Shown here in pieces: positions 43,038 through 57,196 of a DNA stretch of 64,000 nucleotides. The stretch's first letter is position 1; each line of letters starts with the position of its first letter. Made by a program: the position numbers and the translations under genes. Origin of the DNA: an uncultured virus (IMG/VR IMGVR_UViG_3300048930_001331) (lineage: Duplodnaviria > Heunggongvirae > Uroviricota > Caudoviricetes); IMG/VR virus record IMGVR_UViG_3300048930_001331; one strand, given 5' to 3'. Under the pieces are notes generated by a model. That model saw only the letters and a list, made by a program, of their open reading frames with translations, was not told the DNA's origin and searched no databases.

Positions 43038-43292
43038 ATCCGGAGAAGCCTCCGGATTTCCGCGAGAGTGTCGGCTTCCGCCTTGTGATCATGCGTGGGC
43101 GCCGTCCAGATCGCCATCAGGCGCCTGCGAGCTGCACGCAGCTTGAGCCTCTCAGGCCTGGAGAGCGTCTGAGGGATGTGAATTCTATCCGGAATATCAA
43201 TGATCTGGAGCATGAGAGCGACCCCGGACGACCGGCTCAATCGGGGTGGGGAACAGAAAATGGCCGCCCGAGGTCTGGGTGGAAATATGCTC

Positions 43293-43823
43293 CTATTTTC
43301 CACCTTTCGTCAAGCGAGACGGAATTCCTAGTTTTGGCCACTTCCGCTCGCGCAGCTCGATGTCTGCCGGGTCGGAGAATTCGCTTTCGCTTCGCACCTT
43401 GCGGCCGCGCACCGACATGCCGGCCAGATGCACGGTTTCGCGATCGCCAGACACGAGATGGTGCCACCACGGCAGCAGCTTCCCTGCATCGACGAGCCGG
43501 TACGCACAGGTGTCAGGAAGCCAGCCTTCGCGAACAGTCTCTGGTGTCAGCGAGACGCAATCGTCGAAATGTTGAGCCCTTGTGCGATATTTCGAGCACA
43601 TGCCTGTCACGCAGTCGAGCAGGCGGCACGCAACATCGGTATAGAACACATCCTTGTCGTCGTTGGGGTCGCTGAATTTCAGCAGGCAACAGCGCCCACA
43701 ACCATCGCAGAGCTGCTCCCACTCCGCTCGCGTCATCTCCTCCAGAGTCTTGGCCTTCCAAAAGGGCTCACCGGGTAACTGCGCACGCCTGCCAGGGCGG
43801 CCGGCTGGCACCGGCTGTTTCAC
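43293..43823 (-). CDS. YcgN/UPF0260-family cysteine-cluster protein
   Basis: FWKAKTLEEMTRAEWEQLCDGCGRCCLLK; WLPDTCAYRL; WHHLVSG. Confidence 0.88.
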   Translation of the reverse strand: MKQPVPAGRPGRRAQLPGEPFWKAKTLEEMTRAEWEQLCDGCGRCCLLKFSDPNDDKDVFYTDVACRLLDCVTGMCSKYRTRAQHFDDCVSLTPETVREGWLPDTCAYRLVDAGKLLPWWHHLVSGDRETVHLAGMSVRGRKVRSESEFSDPADIELRERKWPKLGIPSRLTKGGK

Positions 43824-45946: not shown

Positions 45947-46636
45947 GGGACTAAACGCCTATTAGGCAGCCTTATCAGGCACTTAGGACCATAGACCTAG
46001 ATAGGAATATTAACAGGCCCGCTACCAGGAGGATATATCCCCTAGCCGAAGGAGGATATTTCCGCTATTATCCTCTTCGGATTCGGAAATAGGCGACTAG
46101 GACCGAATACCCAATAAGTCTCAGAGCCGATAACGATCCAATCTCACAGTGGCCGATACGCCCCGAGATGGAATGGCCGAAAAAAGAGACGGGCTGTTTG
46201 ACAACCGCATCTGACCAGAACGCCTGCGAGGGCGCGAGCACCTCGGCCATTTTTCCGTGCCGCCTTCGCCAGTGCGTCCCCAAAAAACCCAATCCAGACT
46301 TCCTGCCCACCGTCGCTCGAAAGCGCCGGGCAGGTTAAGCGCGCGAACCATCACAGTGGCCGATATGCCCCGATGGGGAGCGGAGCGGGATAACAGAGTA
46401 AGGACGCAAGAATCGCAGGCTTGGTCAGAGACATCCCTAAGCGCCGGACCAAAATCGCAGCAGTAGCAAATCGTCGGTATGCGCAGACGCTTACGAGCGT
46501 CGGCGTGATGACGTGCGACCAGTAGTCCGGAAATGAAAGCCTTAGCTAGTGCAGCCGGTGACAGCGGCTGCATCAGGGTGAGGCTGATCTCACCAAACGG
46601 CCATTCGGCCTGTCACAACTCAATCGGAGAACTACC
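45947..46636. promoter_or_regulatory. Divergent late/early control region
   Basis: About 690 bp without a convincing ORF between divergent units; AT-richer, with direct and inverted repeats. Confidence 0.55.
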
Positions 46637-46921
46637 ATGTCCAAGAAGACCAGCAAGACCGTTGCCCGCAAGTCCTCGACCAAAGCTGCGGCCAGCAAAT
46701 CCCTCGTCAAGAAGTCGAAGCCGACCAGCGTGCCCCAGGTCGCGCATCGTTCCAACTACAAGCCGGGCGACAAGGTGCAACTCCTGAGCCTCACGACACT
46801 GAAGCCGATCGGCTCGGTGCTGAAAGTCCAGAAGCCCGAGAAGGGCGAGCTGAGCCCCGGCAAGGGCTGGTTCATCGTGAAGGATCTGTGGACGCATCAC
46901 ACCGGCCTCGTGCCGGCCTGA
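46637..46921 (+). CDS. Small protein with Lys/Ser-rich N-tail and SH3/KOW-like C-domain
   Basis: GGAG SD; MSKKTSKTVARKSSTKAA...; YKPGDKVQL..WFIV. Confidence 0.75.
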   Translation: MSKKTSKTVARKSSTKAAASKSLVKKSKPTSVPQVAHRSNYKPGDKVQLLSLTTLKPIGSVLKVQKPEKGELSPGKGWFIVKDLWTHHTGLVPA

Positions 46922-47201
46922 TCCAAAGCCCCTCTCACCTTCCTTTAATCCGGCTGCGGGCGAAAGCCCGCGGCCTCTTTTCATGCTACGGTGCAACCAT
47001 GATCACCGTTCGCCCACCCCGCAACCATCTCGCCCCGTGCAGGATCGCGTTCATCGACCAGCGCGATCCGATCCTGCCGGTCGAGTTGGCCCGGCACCGT
47101 CGCCCAGCGCTGCGGGCCATCCCGCGAGTTTATCCGCCAGCCCTGCGCGTGGCAGCTCGACGCGAGTGGTTTGCACTCAACGGCGCCAAGCCTGTCACAC
47201 C

Positions 47202-47507
47202 TCAACGCCTCCGGCGCCTGCGCTTCGGTTGAATCGACCGGTTCTTTTTCGCGCTGATCACTCGCGTCCGATATCGACTAAGTGATCCTGACCGCTTCGC
47301 CCCGACATGATGGACGTGCTTGCCGTCGCCCTTGCGAACGAGCCCGCGCTTCATCGCCTTGCGGCGAGCCTTATTCCTCTCAGACCTGCGCTTGACCTGC
47401 GCTCGTGAGGCTGCCCATCGGGCTTCCTTCGCGTAGTTACGCCAGCGACCGCCGACAAATACGCGGCCGCTGCGAACGCTTCTGCGTCTCCACATTCGTC
47501 GGGCCAT
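47202..47507 (-). CDS. Arg-rich HNH-like small protein
   Basis: RNKARRKAMKRGLVRKGDGKHVHH...KNRS. Confidence 0.55.
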   Translation of the reverse strand: MARRMWRRRSVRSGRVFVGGRWRNYAKEARWAASRAQVKRRSERNKARRKAMKRGLVRKGDGKHVHHVGAKRSGSLSRYRTRVISAKKNRSIQPKRRRRRR

Positions 47508-47714
47508 CGGCCTGTCACGCTTTCTACAAAGCCGCCTTGCCGGGCGGCATCAGCACAAGGGGAAAGACAATGACCAAGCAATCCGCTATCCGCCTCGCCC
47601 GCCTGCATCGCGCAGCTGGTCGCAAGGTCCGCGTTCATCGCCATCGCGGTGTCGACTATCGCGACCGTGCCCGCGTTTTCTACACCCTGTCAGTCCAGTG
47701 ATCGGGAGGGCAGG

Positions 47715-48254
47715 ATGACCGAACATCTGCTCAGAGTCGCGCTTCACGCGCTCAACCTGATCCCGAACACGCATATCGCTCATGACGATTATCGCACGAC
47801 CTATAGCTTGGCCGCCGCGATCGAGAGATCGCTGTCGGCCACGGAAGCCGAGAAGCCGACACGCACCTTCGCGCTACGAGCAGAGGCTGTTGCCTGTATC
47901 TGGGAAGCCATGCTCGATCTGAGGCTCAACAGCGCGCCAGACACTCCGCTGAAGCGCGCAATCGACCCGCTATTCGACAGCTACGGCACAGCGGAGATGC
48001 GGCATGTCGCGATCTCCCTCGCTGACACCTTGTTGGATGTCTACGAGTTCATTCCAGCAGACCAGCAGCAAGAACTCGACCTGTTGCCATACGACTGGTG
48101 TTTCGTGCCGATGTTCCTCGACGCGATCGACTGGTCCAAGCTGAATGTCTTTTCGGAATATCAAGGAACACAATGGGCTGGCGAGCCCCATCTGATCGCA
48201 GCCAAGATGATCAATGCGGCACGATCGCTGATCAATAAGCGTACTGCAGCGTAA
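47715..48254 (+). CDS. Hypothetical early protein
   Basis: GGAGG upstream; PYDWCFVPMFL. Confidence 0.6.
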   Translation: MTEHLLRVALHALNLIPNTHIAHDDYRTTYSLAAAIERSLSATEAEKPTRTFALRAEAVACIWEAMLDLRLNSAPDTPLKRAIDPLFDSYGTAEMRHVAISLADTLLDVYEFIPADQQQELDLLPYDWCFVPMFLDAIDWSKLNVFSEYQGTQWAGEPHLIAAKMINAARSLINKRTAA

Positions 48255-48509
48255 CCCACCACCAGCGCTCTTGCCGGAGCGCATACCAAGAGGAAAATCC
48301 GATGCTGAATCTCGTTGCCCTTCCGGGCGACGCCTACATGCTCGTGTCCAAAACCGAGCCCGAGAAGGCGTTGGCCTGGATACTCCCCGTCGATGGCGCC
48401 TACAGCGTCACATCCCGTTGCGGCACTTCGACATTTTCCATGTGCGAAGCAACGCCATTGTCGCTGCGATCCGCGCTTGTCAGGGCCGCAAGCCTCTCAG
48501 GAGAGCGGC

Positions 48510-48857
48510 ATGAACGATATCAGATCGCAACTCATGGAGATGTGCGCCAGGCACTACGAGGAGCTTGGCGTCTGCTGGCACATGGAGCGGCAGAGAACCG
48601 CCTCATGGTACTTCAGCTCATTCTCCAACCGCTTCGGCGAAAAGGGGAACGGCGCGAAGGCGCTGCGCGAACTCTGCGAGTACGCCGACGCAGTCGGCAT
48701 CAGCATCGAACTGTTTGCGCAGCACCGCAGCGGCCAGCGTGAAAAGCTCGTTCAATACTACGAGTCCTTCGGATTTTTCGACAACGGCGATCGCCTCGGC
48801 CAATGCACATGCATGACGCGCGAGCCGATTTCCGCTTCCGAACGGAGGGTGGCATGA
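48510..48857 (+). CDS. GNAT acetyltransferase-like protein
   Basis: KGNGAKALRELCEYAD..IELFA..LVQYYESFGF. Confidence 0.6.
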   Translation: MNDIRSQLMEMCARHYEELGVCWHMERQRTASWYFSSFSNRFGEKGNGAKALRELCEYADAVGISIELFAQHRSGQREKLVQYYESFGFFDNGDRLGQCTCMTREPISASERRVA

Positions 48858-50089
48858 TCGACATCCGCAACCCAACCAACCGCCGCACTGAATGCCGGAT
48901 CGTGCGGATCAACGGCCTGCAGCTCGTGTTCAGCCACAACACGCTGATCGGCTTCTTCGCTGCCGGTGACACGTCATCCCGTGAGCGGGCGTACCGCCTC
49001 GAAAACCGATGGGGTCCGACGACCGGGCGACACATGATGGAGTCCGGCATCTATCACGCCGCCATCGTCACCGAGCAGCAGCTGCGCGACCTCGTGCAGA
49101 CCGAGCTTCTGTGCTGCGTCGAGTTCGGCGGCACAGAGATTGAGGAGGCGGCGTGATGAGGCCGCCCCCCGGCACAATGATCTACTGGCGCCCCCGCAGC
49201 CTGTGCCGCTGCGGAGAGCAGATGCGTGAGAACCAATGGCAGTTCGGATATGTCACCTACCTCAACGACCCCGACCTGATCCGCCTTGGCAGTTGGAATG
49301 GGGACACGATGGGCGGCCAGATCATGTCTGCGTCCGGCATCGAGTGGCGGCCGTACCGACGATGATAGCCCACTACGAAGGCGTGGCAGCCGCGATGCTC
49401 GGCCTGTCACCAGCATCAAACCCATATCGCCGCATCCTGCGGCTCCAATGGGCGAAGCGGCGCGAGACATCGCGCTTCCTACACATCCTCGCAAACGCTT
49501 GGGACGGCGGCCATCGGGCTGCCGTTTCGCTTTCACCTTTCACAACGGAGGACCGAAGTGGACCAGAGCTACAAGACCAGACGACCTTATCTGCGCATGA
49601 AGGCCGACCAGCATTGGGAGATGGCCGGCCTGGCTCGGCAGGACAACGACATGAAGGACGCTGAGCGCCACACGCAGCTGGCGCGCGAGTTTGAGCAGAA
49701 ATGGAGGGATGCCGAACAATGACCTTCGAGGCTCACATCCGCGTCGTGTTCGACGCCAACAGCAAGACCGAGGCGCAGCTGCGCGCCAGCAACATGATCG
49801 AGGCGCTGTCGGATGCCGGCGCTTTGCTCGCGACCATCATCGACCCGAGACCGGTGCGGGACCACAACATCGGCGAGCAGGTGGACTCATGAAGACCACC
49901 GGATCACCCATCAGACGAATGATCAAGTGGACCCACGATGCCAAATCGATGGGTATCGCAGGCAAGTCAGCCGGCCAGACGCTGGCTCGTAGATTCGCTA
50001 CGGAGCACGGCATCGCCGTGATCCTGAAGAGTGACCGCTCGATCATCGCTTACGATCGCTTCGGGTCGAAGTTCAAGTTCAAGCCCTGA
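48854..50089 (+). other. Run of small early hypothetical ORFs (48854..49156, 49153..49365, 49558..49722, 49719..49892, 49889..50089)
   Basis: ATGA/GTGA overlaps and SD motifs. Confidence 0.55.
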
Positions 50090-50133
50090 CCAACAACCGG
50101 GTTGCCGCCCGGTCAACACACAAGAGGAAAACC

Positions 50134-51015
50134 ATGACTCAGTTTCATGTCGTGCGCGTGCGCGACGGCGAAGACGATCTCATCTGTCGCAACGGAGATG
50201 GCTCCGGCCACCGCGTCTTCGACAACGGCCGTGCCGCTGCCGAATACGCACAGGATATGCGCAAGCAACATCCTGACTACAGATACATTCCACGACCGAT
50301 CCGCGAAGCCAATTCAGACTGGCGGCAGCGACAGCTGGAACGATTGGCCAACGGTCACTACAAGTTGGTGCCGTGGCCATCGCCGCTCACGACCTACACC
50401 GACCACTTCCTGCACATCTCGACGAAGGACCCCGAGAAGGTGGCCTTCACGGAGTCGCCCGAGAAGGGCGAACGCGACATCCAGACTCAGCTGTCGCCCG
50501 GCAAATACCTGACACGCTTCTTCCCGAACCTGTCCCCGGATTCTGTCAGGCATTACGCCAACATGGTTGGCGCCGATCATCTCGAGTTCAAGATCGCGAT
50601 GACGGTCGAGGAGATCACCGAGGTCTACGTGAACGGTCCGAAGTCCTGCATGTCGGGAAAGATGGGAGGGGACTTTTCCGGCGGCCTTCATCCAGTCGCG
50701 GCTTACGCCACTGGCGACTTCGGCGTCGCTTACCTTGAGCGTCACGGCAGCATCACGGCACGGAGCGTCGTGGTGCCCGAGCGAAAGCTCTACGTCGACA
50801 TCTATGGCGACTACGACCGACTGAGCGCCGCGCTCAAAAACGCTGGGTATCGGCGTAGTGACCGCCGCGATGACTTCCTGGGTCTGAAACTCAAAGCCAT
50901 CAAGCGACAGGACGAGCCCTACCGGGATCGACCCGGATATTGGGTGCGCCCGCACCTGGACTTCCCGTTCTACGACCTTCGTCACGAAGGCGAATACCTG
51001 ATCGTTGTCGACTGA
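50134..51015 (+). CDS. Hypothetical early protein, paralogue A
   Basis: HISTKDPEKVAFTESPEKGERDIQT..GKYLTRFF..GPKSCM. Confidence 0.75.
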   Translation: MTQFHVVRVRDGEDDLICRNGDGSGHRVFDNGRAAAEYAQDMRKQHPDYRYIPRPIREANSDWRQRQLERLANGHYKLVPWPSPLTTYTDHFLHISTKDPEKVAFTESPEKGERDIQTQLSPGKYLTRFFPNLSPDSVRHYANMVGADHLEFKIAMTVEEITEVYVNGPKSCMSGKMGGDFSGGLHPVAAYATGDFGVAYLERHGSITARSVVVPERKLYVDIYGDYDRLSAALKNAGYRRSDRRDDFLGLKLKAIKRQDEPYRDRPGYWVRPHLDFPFYDLRHEGEYLIVVD

Positions 51016-51052
51016 CCGCTTTGCCGAGCGGTTTCTCAAGAGGAAAACAGAA

Positions 51053-52456
51053 ATGCAATTCCAGATCGTCGAACTGACTGCGTCCGGCGTCGTGCCGGTC
51101 ATGCAGGGCAGCGAGCCTGTCACGTTCATCAACGGCAAGGACGCTGCAAACTTCGCCCGCTCTCTCGCGATTGCGAAGGGTGGAAAATACCAACCGCGGC
51201 CGATCAAGGATATGAACTGGCGCGACCGCGAGCGCGCCAGATTCCAGAACGGCTCCTATCAGGAGCTGCCTTGGGCGCAGCAAAAGTGGTGGCGAAAGAG
51301 CGAATGCGCGAAGAACCACTTCGCGCATGTCAGCGTCAAGAAGCCTGGCCTTGTGGCCTTTACCGAGTCTGACGAAAAGGGCTCTCAGGACGTCCAGACT
51401 TCAATGAAGGCCGGTCGCTACCTGACCCGCTTCTTCGCCGATGTCCTGTCGGAAGACCAGATCAGGGACTACGCGCACGAGTTCTCGGTCCAGTTCGAGG
51501 ACGGCGTCCTGCTGTTCGCCGAGACCGCTGACGAGATCGAGTGGGTCTACTGCAATGGCCCAAGCTCATGCATGGGCAACGAGACGCAGCGGAAAGCCAA
51601 TGGATGGGGCAACTTCCGAAGCCCCTTCCACCCGGTACGGGTCTACGCGGCCGGCGACTTGCAGGTGGCGTACATCCGCGAGGGTGAGAAGGTAATCTCC
51701 AGGGCTTTGGTCTGGCCGGAGAAGAAGACTCACTCCCGCTGCTATGGCGACGAGTACCGCATCCAGCAATTACTGCAGCAGGAAGGCTATCGGTTTGCCG
51801 CGCCTGTTGGCGCCAAGATCGAACGCCACGTCGTGAACGACCAATACTTCGTTGCGCCGTATATCGACCGCGGCGAAAGCTCTGGTGGCGGGTCGCTTTG
51901 CGTGGCGGATCGCGAAACGCATCTCGAGATCGTCATCTCAGGGCAGCAATGCGACCAGCTCTACGGCCTGACACGCCGGTACGGCATCGGCGATGTTATC
52001 AGCGACGACGATGACGAGGACGAGGAATACGACTTTCATTGCAACTCTTGCGATGAAGGCTCGAACGGTGAGTCGTATGTCGTTTTCACCGCACGCAATC
52101 GCGAGCGTGTCTGGTGTCAGAGTTGCTACGAGAACAGCACGTTCTATTGCGACGCGCTGGAGCGCGACTTCAGCTCCGACTCTGTCACTAGCTACGAACT
52201 TGAGACCGGTGAGACGTGGTCTGAGTTCGCATTCGATGATGACGGAGCCGAGTGCGAGGCCACCAACACGTACTGGCCGGTCGGCGATACCGTCACTCTA
52301 GCGCGCGGCGCTGTCTGGAGCCGGCACCATCTCGATCGACATGGCGGCCAGTGCCTTGGGTGCCGTGAATACTTTTCGTCCGACGACCTCAACGAGGCCG
52401 GCGACAACTTCGCATGCGAATGCGATCGCGCGCACCAGCGTGAAATCCTTTCCTAA
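51053..52456 (+). CDS. Hypothetical early protein, paralogue B with Cys-rich C-terminus
   Basis: HVSVKKPGLVAFTESDEKGSQDVQT..GRYLTRFF..GPSSCM; several CxxC pairs. Confidence 0.75.
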   Translation: MQFQIVELTASGVVPVMQGSEPVTFINGKDAANFARSLAIAKGGKYQPRPIKDMNWRDRERARFQNGSYQELPWAQQKWWRKSECAKNHFAHVSVKKPGLVAFTESDEKGSQDVQTSMKAGRYLTRFFADVLSEDQIRDYAHEFSVQFEDGVLLFAETADEIEWVYCNGPSSCMGNETQRKANGWGNFRSPFHPVRVYAAGDLQVAYIREGEKVISRALVWPEKKTHSRCYGDEYRIQQLLQQEGYRFAAPVGAKIERHVVNDQYFVAPYIDRGESSGGGSLCVADRETHLEIVISGQQCDQLYGLTRRYGIGDVISDDDDEDEEYDFHCNSCDEGSNGESYVVFTARNRERVWCQSCYENSTFYCDALERDFSSDSVTSYELETGETWSEFAFDDDGAECEATNTYWPVGDTVTLARGAVWSRHHLDRHGGQCLGCREYFSSDDLNEAGDNFACECDRAHQREILS

Positions 52457-53523
52457 TGGGGACACAGATGACCTTCATGACCAACGAAGCCGACTACCAG
52501 ACGCTCTGGAACATGCTGCGCGTGCGACGTCCTGCCGGCAGCAAATCGGAGAGACGCTTTATCCGCGACTTCCTGCATCCGCTCGGGCTTAACGAGGATG
52601 GAGGCGGCAATCTCTGGAAGAGGATCGGAGACGATCCAATCATGTGGTCGTGTCACACCGACACCGTGCACAAGGACGGAGGCGAACAGAAGATCCAGAT
52701 GAAGGACGGTTTCATCTCGATCGCAAGGTCTGGAGCCTCCAACTGCCTCGGCGCGGATGACGGCGCTGGCATCTGGCTGATGCGCGAGATGATCCTGGCC
52801 GAACGCCCCGGCCTCTACATCTTCCACCGCGAGGAGGAACATGGCGGAGTCGGCTCGCGATACCTGACGAAGAACGAGAAGGAAATTGTCAGCGGCATTC
52901 AGGCCGCGATCGCTTTCGACCGTCGGGGCACGACCAACGTGATCACGCATCAGGCCGGAGGCCGATGTTGCTCGGACGATTTCGGCAAGTCTCTTGCGAG
53001 GGCGCTCAATCAGGATGGCCTCGCCTTGAACTACGAGACCTGCCCGGACGGCATCTTCACCGACACCGCCAACTATACGGACCTGATCGGCGAATGCACG
53101 AATGTGTCGGTGGGCTACTACGGCGAGCACACGTCAACCGAATGCTTGAGCTACGGACACATTCTCTCGCTGCGTCAGGCGCTGATGAATGTGAGGCTCG
53201 ATCAGCTCGTCGTGTCACGCAAGCCCGGCGAATTCGATCCAGATGACCTGGAAGACTACATGGGCTGGCGTTACGGCGGCTACGGCTCGAACTTCACGAC
53301 GTACACCACGAGCCAACGCGGCAAGGTGCCGAAAAAGTCTTTCAACCCCTCTCCATTCGGAGACGAAGAAGAGGAGGTCGAGTCCATGAGCATTTGGGAC
53401 ATGGTTCAGGAATTTCCTGATGCCGTTGCGGACTTCCTCGAACATCATTCTGGTGAAGAGGAACTGCGCCGCTTCATCATGGAGAGCTACGGGATGAACC
53501 GTCGCTCGCGATATCGCAGATAA
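52456..53523 (+). CDS. M20/M28-clan zinc peptidase-like protein
   Basis: CHTDTVH; LGADDGAG; HREEEHGGVGS; AFDRRG; NVSVGYYGEH. Confidence 0.85.
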   Translation: MGTQMTFMTNEADYQTLWNMLRVRRPAGSKSERRFIRDFLHPLGLNEDGGGNLWKRIGDDPIMWSCHTDTVHKDGGEQKIQMKDGFISIARSGASNCLGADDGAGIWLMREMILAERPGLYIFHREEEHGGVGSRYLTKNEKEIVSGIQAAIAFDRRGTTNVITHQAGGRCCSDDFGKSLARALNQDGLALNYETCPDGIFTDTANYTDLIGECTNVSVGYYGEHTSTECLSYGHILSLRQALMNVRLDQLVVSRKPGEFDPDDLEDYMGWRYGGYGSNFTTYTTSQRGKVPKKSFNPSPFGDEEEEVESMSIWDMVQEFPDAVADFLEHHSGEEELRRFIMESYGMNRRSRYRR

Positions 53524-53621
53524 GCGGTGCGCCGGGGAGGTTGCCGCCTCCCCGGCATGGCTTGCGCCATGTCACGCGGCCCCTGCGCCGCAAGAGGAAA
53601 TCCCGGACAAAGGAAACCACG

Positions 53622-53990
53622 ATGACTGAAACCCTATACCGCATCACCGGCCAGCCTGTCACGAACGAGGATCGCGCAATTTTTGCGCGAGCTGCGGTCG
53701 AGGCGTTCAGAGAGGTGTGCAGCGGAAGCTCGCTCTACGACGAGAACGGCGACTTCAATCGCGAGGGTGTGGCTGAAGCGATCGGCGACCTGATCGGAAA
53801 CCTTATGCACCTCGCCGCTCTGGCCAACCTCGACCCAATCGGCCTGATCCAGCACGGCGTTTCGCACTATGAATGCGAGCGCCGATGGCCACCCGATGGG
53901 TTCGGCCCAGCGTCAGATCGGATCGATGTGTCGGTCTGCGTAACCATCGACAGCATCGCGCACGGTCTTGCCAAGCAGGCAGCACGATGA
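53622..53990 (+). CDS. Hypothetical early protein
   Basis: TNEDRA..AIGDLIGNLMH; AAGGA SD. Confidence 0.65.
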   Translation: MTETLYRITGQPVTNEDRAIFARAAVEAFREVCSGSSLYDENGDFNREGVAEAIGDLIGNLMHLAALANLDPIGLIQHGVSHYECERRWPPDGFGPASDRIDVSVCVTIDSIAHGLAKQAAR

Positions 53991-54472
53991 ACGGCAAGCT
54001 CAATCCGTTCTATCCAGCCACGTTCTCTACATCTGCGGAGCAGATCATTGAACGCTTCTCTGGCGCGCCGGGCATTGACCCGGAGGACGTTCGCAGATGC
54101 GTCGACGAGATGCGCAGGATGCAGCTGTGGAAGAACGACGAATATCAAGTCGGCATCAACAAGACGCCGCAGCACGGCTTTGGCGACGCCGAAGTATGGC
54201 ACCTGAGCATCAAGCGCCTGGACAAAGCGCCGGTCCACGACTGGCGTGATTTGCAAGCGATCAAGAACATGCTCGTAGGCCCCGAATATGAGGCCATCGA
54301 GCTGTACCCGGCAGAGAGCCGCCTGATGGACACCGCGAACCAGTACCACCTGTTCGTGTTTGTCCAGATGGGTGGCATCGATATGCCGACCATACCGCTC
54401 GGATTCACCGGGCGGGCAGTGAGTGGACCTGACGCTGCCGCGGTTCTCGGCGCTGTCCAGCGTCCACTCTAA
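53987..54472 (+). CDS. Hypothetical phage protein
   Basis: HLSIKRLD..HDWRDLQAIKN..AIELYPAESRLMDTANQYHL. Confidence 0.7.
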   Translation: MNGKLNPFYPATFSTSAEQIIERFSGAPGIDPEDVRRCVDEMRRMQLWKNDEYQVGINKTPQHGFGDAEVWHLSIKRLDKAPVHDWRDLQAIKNMLVGPEYEAIELYPAESRLMDTANQYHLFVFVQMGGIDMPTIPLGFTGRAVSGPDAAAVLGAVQRPL

Positions 54473-54500
54473 CAAGCGGGAGAAACCCGCAGGAGTGACG

Positions 54501-54953
54501 ATGATCTACACCATCGGATACGAATGCCTTTCCCCAATCGAGTTCGTCCGGATCGTCCGCAAGATGCATGCGGTCGTGATCGACGGTCGATTCATCAGGG
54601 GGCGGGCGAAACGTGGCTTCGGTGTTCTTCAGCTCGAAGCTGCGCTTGGCGACCAGTACGAGTGGCACGGCAACATCCTGGGCGGGTTCAACAACATCAC
54701 CCGCACGGGCGTGACCATGCTGCGTAACCGGCAGGAGCATGAAACCCTGCTGCTGGTTTGCATGGAGGAAGCTCCCGGTGAATGTCACCGCCACAACGGG
54801 ATATGCCATCCGCATTTCCCGGAGGCCGTGCACATTTTTCGGGACGAGTTGATCCTGGCTCGTGACCTTCAGGACAGCTTCTCGATGCCTGAAGAAACGG
54901 CCGACTACCCCTTGTGGGGGAACCTGTCGGACCTACTAGCAGACAGCGGATAA
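54501..54953 (+). CDS. DUF488-like protein
   Basis: IYTIGYE; LLVCMEEAPGECHR. Confidence 0.7.
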   Translation: MIYTIGYECLSPIEFVRIVRKMHAVVIDGRFIRGRAKRGFGVLQLEAALGDQYEWHGNILGGFNNITRTGVTMLRNRQEHETLLLVCMEEAPGECHRHNGICHPHFPEAVHIFRDELILARDLQDSFSMPEETADYPLWGNLSDLLADSG

Positions 54954-55131
54954 GTCCGCTCAAAGGGTGGATATTTCTTGTTTTTATCCACCGTCGCGAT
55001 ACTCTTTCGACACGGTTTGCCGACCGGACGCCGCAAGAGTGAGACGCCGCCCAGCGCCAGCCGGGGCGGCGTTTCTGTTTCAGGCTGGCACCACGCTGAC
55101 AATGCCTGTCAGCATATCAAGAGGAAAGACC

Positions 55132-56253
55132 ATGAAAGCTGGACGAAGCCTTCAAGACCTCGCTGCCGAGATAACTCGCCAGCAAAACTCCAAGCGCGAC
55201 TTCATCGCGAGCACAGACAAGCTCGAAGTCATTTTGGCCGGCTCTCCACAACCCGATGGAGTGACGCGACCAAACCTCAAGATCGGCGACTTCAATGCGT
55301 TCCCGATCAACAAGCTGACGCACGGCCAGATCGCCGAGCACACGGGCATTCCGAAGGGCTATTACGACCGGATGCTGAAGGAAGCGCCGGAGCTGCTCGG
55401 CAAGAATATCAACGAGTGGTTCCACCGCTTCCCGGCACCCCGGATGGTCCGTCTTCTCGACGGCAATGTCCGGGCCTTCCTGTCGGATCGCTTCGCGCTG
55501 CTCGATAACTTCGACTTCGCCAACGCGGCGTTGCCGATCATTCGGGATCGCAACCTCGATATCGTGTCCTGCGAAATCACCGAGACCCGTCTCTACATCA
55601 AGGTGATCGACAAGACCGAATTCCAGGTGCCGGTCGGCTACCGGATGGGTGATGGATCGCACAAGATCTTCGACGTGTGCTGCCCCGCCCTCATCCTGTC
55701 TAACTCCGAAGTCGGCTTCGGCCGCCTCGTGGTTGAGACCGGGGTCTATACCAAGGCCTGCACCAACCTGTCGTGGTTCTCTTCCGGAGGCTTCAAGCGC
55801 ACTCATATCGGCGCCCGTCACCGTATGACCGAAGGTCTATCGGTTGATGACCTGGACAAGGTTATGTCCGACGAGACCAAGCGGAAAACGCAGGAAGCTC
55901 TGTGGCTTCAGGTGCGTGACGTCGTTGCGTCGGCCTTCGACAAGACCACGATCCAGCGCCGGTCGGAACAGCTGGAAGCTGCCGGCAACAACACCTTCGC
56001 ACCAAGCAAAGCCGGTGCGATCGTCGAGGTTGCAGGCGACCGCTTCGGCCTGAATGAGATCGAGAAGAACTCGGTTCTCGATCACCTGATGGCGGGAGGC
56101 AACCTGTCTCAGTACGGCCTGCATGCCGCAATCACGCGTGCTGCTCAGGATGTCGCCGATTACGACCGAGCGACTGAATTCGAGTACCTGGGCGGCAAGG
56201 TCATCGACCTGACCAAGACCGAGTGGAAGCAGGTCGAGGCGCTCGCGGCTTAA
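55132..56253 (+). CDS. DUF932/DUF945-like protein
   Basis: RAFLSDRF; LSNSEVGFG; CTNL; YGLHAAITRAAQ. Confidence 0.75.
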   Translation: MKAGRSLQDLAAEITRQQNSKRDFIASTDKLEVILAGSPQPDGVTRPNLKIGDFNAFPINKLTHGQIAEHTGIPKGYYDRMLKEAPELLGKNINEWFHRFPAPRMVRLLDGNVRAFLSDRFALLDNFDFANAALPIIRDRNLDIVSCEITETRLYIKVIDKTEFQVPVGYRMGDGSHKIFDVCCPALILSNSEVGFGRLVVETGVYTKACTNLSWFSSGGFKRTHIGARHRMTEGLSVDDLDKVMSDETKRKTQEALWLQVRDVVASAFDKTTIQRRSEQLEAAGNNTFAPSKAGAIVEVAGDRFGLNEIEKNSVLDHLMAGGNLSQYGLHAAITRAAQDVADYDRATEFEYLGGKVIDLTKTEWKQVEALAA

Positions 56254-56352
56254 AGCAATGGGTCGCGCGACGGGACGGGCAAGTCCTGCTGCGCGACCCT
56301 CCATCCAGTGATGGGTGGATCACTGGACGAATTTCACACACGGAGAAACGGC

Positions 56353-56904
56353 ATGACGGTATGGTTCACCGCCGACACCCACTTCTATCACAAACGGATC
56401 ATCGACCTGGCGAAACGCCCATTCTCTTCGGTCGAAGAGATGGACGAGACGATGATCGCCCGCTGGAACGAGCGCGTCCAGAAGGGCGACACTGTCTATC
56501 ACCTGGGCGACTTCGCCTTCACGGATCACACGCCATATCTCGAGCGGCTAAATGGCCACAAGGTGCTCGTCATCGGCAACCACGATCACAGCAACCGGAT
56601 CAGGCGCGCCGAGGGGTGGATGACGCACAGGCATCTTCTGGAAGTCAAGGTCGATGACCAACCGGTCGTGCTGTGTCACTACCGCATGAATGTCTGGAAT
56701 AGATCGCACCACGGCGCGATCCACCTGTACGGCCACAGTCACGGCAATCTTGAGGGCGACAGCCAGAGCCAGGATGTCGGCGTTGATGTCTGGGACTTTA
56801 GGCCGGTGACGCTCGACGAGATCAAGGAGCAGCTGCGATTAAACCGCAGGCGCATCGAACCAGATCACCACCAACCACGGCTGACCGCCGTTAAGCGAGG
56901 TTGA
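56353..56904 (+). CDS. Calcineurin-like metallophosphoesterase
   Basis: ADTHF; HLGDF; GNHD; HLYGHSH. Confidence 0.92.
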   Translation: MTVWFTADTHFYHKRIIDLAKRPFSSVEEMDETMIARWNERVQKGDTVYHLGDFAFTDHTPYLERLNGHKVLVIGNHDHSNRIRRAEGWMTHRHLLEVKVDDQPVVLCHYRMNVWNRSHHGAIHLYGHSHGNLEGDSQSQDVGVDVWDFRPVTLDEIKEQLRLNRRRIEPDHHQPRLTAVKRG

Positions 56905-56906
56905 GG

Positions 56907-57140
56907 ATGCCGAAGTCGCTTCCAACTTGCGCAGTAACCGGCCGGATCGCTGGCGATGGTTTCGCGTGCGGCGACTGCGACCCGTGCATGGCGACACATC
57001 TTGTCCCCGATGTCGTCAAGCAACTCATCAAAGAACGCGACGAGTGGGCTGACAAATACGCCGACGCGATGGAAACGATCCAAGATTATCGTGACGAAGT
57101 TTTCAAATTGCGCCATCCCGGCGCCCGAACAAACCGTTAA
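56907..57140 (+). CDS. Small hypothetical protein
   Basis: Cys cluster (CGDCDPC) plus helical tail. Confidence 0.5.
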   Translation: MPKSLPTCAVTGRIAGDGFACGDCDPCMATHLVPDVVKQLIKERDEWADKYADAMETIQDYRDEVFKLRHPGARTNR

Positions 57141-57163
57141 ACCCGCCTAAACGATTGCACAGA

Positions 57164-57196
57164 AAGCCCCGGTCGCAAGGCCGGGGCTTTTTTATT
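57164..57196 (+). terminator. Rho-independent terminator between convergent units
   Basis: AAAGCCCCGG-TCGCAAGG-CCGGGGCTTTTTT. Confidence 0.88.

Follow-up and report, generated by a model that had tools for sequence, protein, structure and literature searches.

TTGCCG-loop hairpins ahead of early genes in a probable alphaproteobacterial prophage and their reading as a possible RNA operator

Four groups of described elements come closest to the subject of this report: the RNA motifs of the anti-CRISPR-associated (Aca) proteins Aca1 and Aca2, the start-associated sequences (SAS) and extended start-associated sequences (ESAS) of Cluster K mycobacteriophages, the promoter early stem-loop (PeSL) cassettes of T4-like phages, and the boxA elements of the lambda nut sites and of ribosomal RNA operons (rrn). 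Here, we analyse a family of hairpins that combine a constant TTGCCG loop with variable perfect stems and are followed by a conserved box, located in a 64,000-nucleotide stretch of an uncultured Caudoviricetes virus (IMG/VR record IMGVR_UViG_3300048930_001331); this whole stretch, referred to as the window, corresponds to bases 1-64,000 of a 76,052-base provirus, 86% complete, which we call G000. The hairpin family is a real and undescribed variant; its new features are the TTGCCG loop type, a second phage that carries it (record G802), its operator and boxA context, and a conserved multi-hairpin copy.

As described in the cited parts of the Aca report, the Aca1 RNA motif ends about 20 bases ahead of the start codon, some Aca motifs are situated between genes, and Aca2 keeps the ribosome from binding (PMC13551039). 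The TTGCCG element resembles the motifs described there in being a small covarying hairpin that ends about 20 bases before the start codon, in occurring also between genes of the same operon, behind a promoter with an operator-like repeat over it, and in accompanying cargo that is unknown and likely anti-defence, with motif types that follow lineage. It differs from them in four respects: no aca or acr gene has been found here among the 20 open reading frames (ORFs) of the gene cassette that carries the hairpins; the conservation is reversed, i.e. the loop is fixed and the stem is free; the copies number 7-8 here and as many as 36 in phages with a TTCGCAG loop, some of them ahead of ssb; and the promoter operators match the repressor sites of the immunity region. 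The hairpin thus appears to work like an Aca RNA motif, but falls outside that group because of the absent aca gene and the reversed conservation.

The SAS and ESAS elements, in the portion of the report that is cited here (PMC3203893), are likewise multi-copy, one-strand elements with an extended Shine-Dalgarno (SD) box before the ATG of non-structural genes; the SAS box lies 3-7 bases before the ATG, and the upstream part is subcluster-specific. In the ESAS, however, the 17-bp arms are conserved, the spacer is variable and RNA pairing has little support, whereas the arms of the present hairpins vary with compensation around a constant loop. The PeSL cassettes also place a stem-loop and an SD sequence before variable small genes, but according to the cited sections each PeSL has a sigma70 promoter, with the stem-loop within or over it (PMC2839356, PMC4122927), whereas most copies here lack room for a promoter; our scan has detected no plus-strand promoter at the window copies, and only the copy at 55013 follows one, which was read by eye. 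The lambda nut and rrn boxA systems, in so far as the cited text presents them (PMC12360218), share with our locus a boxA-like word in the early leader and a hairpin with a phage-specific loop; unlike in lambda nut, boxA and the hairpins are far apart, and the hairpins are many, are tied to ribosome-binding sites and come with no demonstrated N homologue. As in the rrn-type boxA, the word is that of the host rrn leaders and is situated in an untranslated leader.

An earlier note on this DNA, made from the sequence alone, had not recognised the family as a described element, which holds for Rfam and for the literature searched: Rfam has given no match in the window at the gathering threshold, with sub-threshold matches only and none over the hairpins, and literature searches, with supplements outside their scope, have returned no description of the element, although it could be among the motifs tabulated in the Aca paper or in large structured-RNA screens. 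One literature match (PMC10204088) was rejected as a terminator table.

Constant loops and variable stems

Six TTGCCG-loop hairpins are located in the window, and a seventh is found outside it, ahead of ssb (G000:71357). When stems of at least 6 bp are considered across the whole of G000, there are six TTGCCG hairpins, one being the ssb copy; in 200 dinucleotide shuffles of G000 there are none in 198 and one in 2, and the highest count for any six-base loop is 2, so that the comparison with shuffled sequence that the earlier note had named as a refuting condition is in favour of the family. TTGCCG is also the commonest loop among the 205 perfect window hairpins with stems of at least 6 bp (5 copies, followed by a three-base loop with 4). 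With stems of at least 4 bp, 7 of the 83 plus-strand TTGCCG sites form hairpins (background 0.6%), versus 1 of the 46 minus-strand sites, which lies within a gene.

The box AAG[AG]GGAAA occurs seven times in G000, always on the plus strand and 3' of a TTGCCG hairpin or of its ATGCC variant, and in six of the seven cases an ATG follows 3-6 bases past the box. Every hairpin copy lies on the sense strand of an early operon; within the cassette, copies occupy 6 of the 9 junctions with a gap of at least 30 bases, versus none of the 10 tight junctions, and four window copies begin 0-10 bases past a stop codon. The distance from stem to start codon is 19-21 bases in G000 (13 for ssb) and 22-26 bases in G802. 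One run of DNA reads contained no variants, at low depth. The stems, loops, boxes and start codons that had been listed earlier are all correctly placed and all the sites are real; that list lacked the ssb copy, and its copies at 53531 and 55013 are parts of larger multi-hairpin leaders. The membership of the variant at 55095 is less sure, since it shares only TGCC with the constant loop and overlaps the word GCCTGTCA.

The second phage has been found by comparing 236 loci around relatives of two cassette proteins, a 467-aa protein and a peptidase: the TTGCCG family is present in one of them (L722, record G802), a prophage syntenic with G000, where eight copies with other stems occur ahead of a related box (a ninth match, a 4-bp stem within a gene, is left out of the count). 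At orthologous slots of the two phages the hairpin is kept and the stems differ. In the 15 aligned cores of G000 and G802, 93.3% of the stem cells pair, versus 44.5% after shuffling, and both sides have changed in 43 stem cells, versus 15; the loop is unchanged in 15 of 15 copies, while double changes occur at all 6 stem positions. Since the copies were picked for pairing, these figures describe free stem variation under a fixed loop and are no independent significance test. The covariation proposed from G000 thus extends to a second phage and, together with the repressor-type operators of the operon, supports the view that the early genes are preceded by a functional structure under selection.

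One copy, at 53531, is elaborate, and G802 has the same layout in the same slot, after the peptidase gene: a 10-bp hairpin, two small hairpins, a GTCAC linker and the box. In both phages this box has no start codon right behind it, and the start codon downstream is predicted to be mostly paired (unpaired 0.22 and 0.0). Beyond the first helix, the layout has been drawn by eye from two sequences; the alignment-based fold clearly supports the first helix only.

The same arrangement occurs with another loop, TTCGCAG, in Bradyrhizobium-type prophages, at 4-36 copies per record: G001, which shares the 467-aa gene, the peptidase and ssb with G000, has 33 loop-plus-box matches, and there are 22 in G002, 36 in G003, 18 in G004, 6 in G005 and 4 in G006. 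The 91 ordinary TTCGCAG copies have stems of 4-12 bp, with the box mostly 3-10 bases further on, a stop codon mostly 2-25 bases upstream, and C/A-rich flanks; the special copies share an unchanged 14-base box word (8 of 8), and single folds place a small hairpin within a longer stem, two of these copies having z values of -5.5 and -7.0. The cargo of the TTCGCAG cassettes includes ArdC, DUF932, ParB-like, ASCH and superinfection-immunity genes. A hairpin copy precedes ssb in G000-G003; at the 59 ssb starts located among 80 ssb loci of other viral records, no repeated-loop hairpin was found. Any TTCGCAG match occurs in 12 of 201 Bradyrhizobium genomes and multiple copies in 3, clustered on one stretch in each, so that this form is no host-wide signal; these three repeat viral records already counted. 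Phage 16-3 has ACCA-loop hairpins ahead of several genes. The loops are lineage-specific: TTGCCG, TTCGCAG and the ACCA type. In each of G001, G002, G003 and G008, one of the early TTCGCAG copies resembles a terminator, being a hairpin with a T run (e.g. G001:62694 and 63137; L600:4839).

Wider searches for TTGCCG carriers were negative. The TTGCCG pattern occurs in 4 of 401 Bradyrhizobium genomes, with the stem in none; an alignment, A1, had no match in 401 genomes of the order, where the positive control was likewise silent; loop-plus-box scans of viral contigs gave a Watson-Crick stem of at least 4 bp in 0 of 121 matches (a partial scan) and 0 of 43; and single-protein locus searches and blastn against phage records returned no matches. 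Phages BDU-MI-1 (first 40 kb) and Pasto have the 467-aa gene, and the hairpin family is absent from them. L139, L199 and L776, further phages with the 467-aa or the peptidase gene, have recurring palindromes ahead of start codons; the arms of these are fixed, and they look more like DNA operators.

Operators and leader of the cassette

We have built an operator matrix for G000 from four sites, each of 16 bp, in its immunity region; the matrix next ranks the G000 sites at 43278, 46051, 46028, 65350 and 54966. Matrix sites occur at matching positions of G000 and G802, which suggests that both cassette promoters are under the control of the phage repressor. Another repressor-type operator (43278-43293; G802 counterpart 31467) lies in the gap that precedes a minus-strand operon.

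Within its long leader, the cassette has a boxA-like word, and when the leaders of G000 and G802 are compared (about 740 and 880 bases), the 22-base stretch with 21 identities is the only significant same-strand match. The core of this word also occurs in the leaders of G001, G005 and G006, and the same word lies about 230 bases before 16S in 3 of the 14 Bradyrhizobium loci that carry it; the other 11 are without rRNA and look like intergenic repeats (within L614-L627). We read the leader word as a boxA of the rRNA type; boxA recruits NusB/E, according to the cited part of PMC12360218. A boxA in the leader favours one long mRNA with hairpins between its genes. The first hairpin follows boxA at 1.3 kb in G000 and at about 0.8 kb in G802.

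Side observations from the same area concern other leader sequences. In G005 and G006 (L470:11250-11760, L473:3560-4260), a conserved leader of about 500 bases with boxA belongs to cassettes beside terminase genes and is possibly a long structured RNA. In G000, the leader at 46110-46600 (about 500 bases) has a near-direct repeat at about 46140 and 46350, and may be a structured leader or a packaging region.

Table 1. Hairpin copies and accompanying features of the accessory cassette. Positions refer to the window; G802 positions refer to that record.
Feature	Position	Strand	Remarks
Two 16-bp operator-like sites, predicted cassette promoter	46028..46066		Ranks 2 and 3 among non-training matches genome-wide; G802 counterpart 29147
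boxA-like word, long cassette leader	46190..46211	+	Sole G000 match at up to 1 mismatch; 21/22 identical in G802
Accessory gene cassette, about 20 mostly unknown ORFs	46637..57140	+	Flanks on opposite strand
Hairpin 1 (6 bp, TTGCCG) and box	47531..47565	+	ATG 47570 (43-aa Arg-rich ORF), 21 bases past stem
Hairpin 2 and box	48265..48296	+	10 bases past stop codon; ATG 48302
Hairpin 3 and box	50096..50130	+	ATG 50134 (293 aa); G802 orthologue preceded by hairpins with other stems
Hairpin 4 and box	51015..51046	+	Overlaps upstream stop; ATG 51053 (467 aa); G802 orthologue preceded by hairpin with other stem
Elaborate copy: 10-bp TTGCCG hairpin, two small hairpins, GTCAC linker, box	53531..53624	+	ATG 53622 predicted partly paired
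Operator-like inverted repeat over sigma70-like -35/-10 pair	54945..55005	+	Promoter by eye, unlisted in strict scan; G802 counterpart 19983
4-bp TTGCCG hairpin at predicted transcript start, then long second hairpin containing CAAGAG	55013..55089	+	G802 same slot: 4-bp hairpin
Variant hairpin (7 bp, loop ATGCC) and box	55095..55127	+	ATG 55132
Terminator-like hairpin with T run, end of cassette	57163..57196		

Possible functions of the hairpin

We read the hairpin, with a probability of about 0.4, as a translational operator on the mRNA, recognised through its loop by a phage-encoded RNA-binding protein: the constancy of the loop on a freely varying stem implies that the reader recognises sequence, and the differences in loop between lineages imply that the phage itself encodes this reader. 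The RNA site for a phage protein that the earlier note had offered is still the best candidate reading. In the proposed mechanism, the phage repressor would keep the cassette silent in the lysogen; upon infection or induction, the host polymerase would make a long mRNA, with host Nus factors assisting at boxA, and the separately initiated genes would first be translated from open, A/C-rich leaders; the phage protein would then bind the loop, 13-26 bases ahead of the start codon, hindering the loading of the 30S subunit. The early accessory genes and ssb would be controlled together, most likely damped after a first burst, and the elaborate copy may act as a tighter, multi-hairpin version of the switch.

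Several observations weigh against such an operator. Most stems end at what we take, from an assumed footprint size, to be the edge of the ribosome footprint, a position that fits a neutral or a positive role equally well. The wobble strand test, with 7 G-U and 6 A-C among 609 Watson-Crick pairs, reveals no strand bias; the ssb gene of G802 (L382) is without a hairpin; no helix-turn-helix, Aca or Acr family has been found among the 20 cassette ORFs by PHROGs, Pfam and NCBIfam, which a diverged reader could escape; and no small protein links the TTCGCAG phages G001-G004 and G008 to the cassettes of G005 and G006, both of which are fragments. Moreover, the stem is free here, unlike that of the Aca1 motif, which Aca1 is predicted to bind in a DNA-like manner, as the cited part of the report has it (PMC13551039). 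The Arg-rich first ORFs of both TTGCCG cassettes (47570-47701; L786:8291-8554), which share ARL(H/R)RAA (6 of 8 residues, E value 0.10), are a weak candidate for the reader.

A broader proposal, which we regard as doubtful, is a genome-wide RNA operator code in temperate alphaproteobacterial phages, with one reader, a lineage-specific loop before dozens of starts, a boxA-protected early operon, and one elaborate copy per operon that would serve as a timing switch or decoy. If this code were true, the loop types would be post-transcriptional specificity groups, separate from repressor immunity. Phages need fast anti-defence expression, followed by shutdown, and control at the RNA level has been described for a few Aca proteins; if 7-36 genes were preceded by a loop-coded operator, that control would be widened to a phage-wide regulon. 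Such an operator would also mark candidate anti-defence genes from sequence alone and would be a small, testable part, and two phages that share one loop, together with a second family with another loop, permit specificity swaps.

Among the alternatives, the hairpins could instead serve in mRNA processing or stability, i.e. a loop-reading nuclease would cut the polycistronic mRNA beside them, and the hairpin would guard the new 5' or 3' end and set a half-life for each gene. The stops 2-25 bases before most stems and the C/A-rich flanks, both taken from the ordinary TTCGCAG copies, are consistent with this view, as is the single long transcript that the rrn-like leader suggests, but no nuclease common to the carriers has been identified and RNase III needs stems longer than 4-6 bp; overall, we consider this function unlikely. 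A precedent is RegB of T4, a phage nuclease that acts at early ribosome-binding sites, as the cited part of PMC3014915 relates.

In boxB-like antitermination or attenuation, an N-like phage peptide on the loop and Nus factors at boxA would control read-through. The boxA-like word in the leaders of five records (G000, G802, G001, G005 and G006), the terminator-like early TTCGCAG copies and the ARL(H/R)RAA of the Arg-rich ORFs point in this direction, but that peptide match is not significant, there are up to 36 copies, each linked to a start codon, unlike nut, and the two main promoters of G000, left and right, are without a copy. Moreover, boxA and boxB are side by side in nut sites, whereas here boxA is present but remote from the nearest hairpin in both phages; the boxB-like role suggested earlier is thus weakened, and we find it improbable.

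We assign a similarly low probability to a copied expression socket, i.e. a PeSL-like hairpin-plus-SD unit, spread by recombination, that would need no reader of its own, insulating each ribosome-binding site and offering a place for gene swaps. Corresponding slots of G000 and G802 contain different genes, the conservation of the 10-base box reaches further than its SD pairing, and gene shuffling is mediated by PeSLs in the cited part of PMC2839356; the DNA of the two phages is too diverged for the mapping of gene-swap junctions. Copying, however, would keep the stems like the loops, yet the stems are scrambled and the loops fixed, the promoter part is absent from most copies, and the sequence in common amounts to merely 6+10 bases.

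Very improbable is the DNA-hairpin promoter, of the N4 type or on single-stranded DNA, which the earlier note had also raised: it would agree with the almost purely Watson-Crick stems, the neutral strand test, the copies ahead of ssb in G000-G003 and TTCGCAG cargo that we take to resemble plasmid leading-region genes, but stems of 4-12 bp, variable spacing and copies just after stop codons in a long operon are a misfit for a fixed start site, both units already begin with a sigma70-type promoter that has an operator over it, and the longest proteins called in G000-G003 have 1323, 1033, 987 and 898 aa, versus about 3500 aa for the N4 virion polymerase. A PF00940 search for a phage RNA polymerase was empty in the 86% complete G000, its control also being without a match.

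Other ideas were rejected: for an antisense partner, the box has no minus-strand copy in G000; a loop-box pseudoknot has just three general base pairs; tRNA-loop mimicry and a ribozyme were considered and found to be without support.

Cassette genes and minor observations

The plus-strand cassette is set between the minus-strand replication and late modules of G000; beyond the window, G000 has an integrase and a repressor/Cro-like pair, labelled by homology to phage 16-3 and by reading of the sequences. Two signs suggest that the host is an alphaproteobacterium, namely a GcrA gene in G000 and the identity of those homologues of the 467-aa protein that are named. The cassette members that could be named are a GNAT-like protein, the 293-aa and 467-aa paralogues, an M28-like peptidase, DUF7694, a DUF488-like protein, phrog_1362 and a phosphoesterase; G802 has in common the GNAT-like gene, the two paralogues, the peptidase and the DUF488-like gene that closes the first unit, with no known RNA-binding regulator among these, and at equal slots the gene content differs. 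A 373-aa cassette protein is weakly like DUF932 (E value 0.015), and G802 has a DUF932 gene in the matching slot. The structure model of the DUF488-like protein, from a single sequence, has a predicted local distance difference test score (pLDDT) of 37; structure-atlas matches gave only weak SH3/KOW-like leads for the 94-aa first ORF, and in the atlas search the 467-aa protein matched viral clusters without names.

Inside the cassette, a minus-strand ORF at 47202-47507 encodes a basic protein of 101 aa, which has no Pfam match and which we presume to be HNH-like. The word GCCTGTCAC occurs nine times between 43602 and 60958 of the window, always in plus-strand orientation, both inside and outside coding sequence, and nowhere else in G000 (0.45 expected); it has not been seen in G802 and resembles an oriented DNA signal. 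A second hairpin word, with GGCC arms and an ATC or ATTC loop, is located at 46597-46616, 47410-47425, 47499-47518 and 49509-49520, twice directly before GCCTGTCAC.

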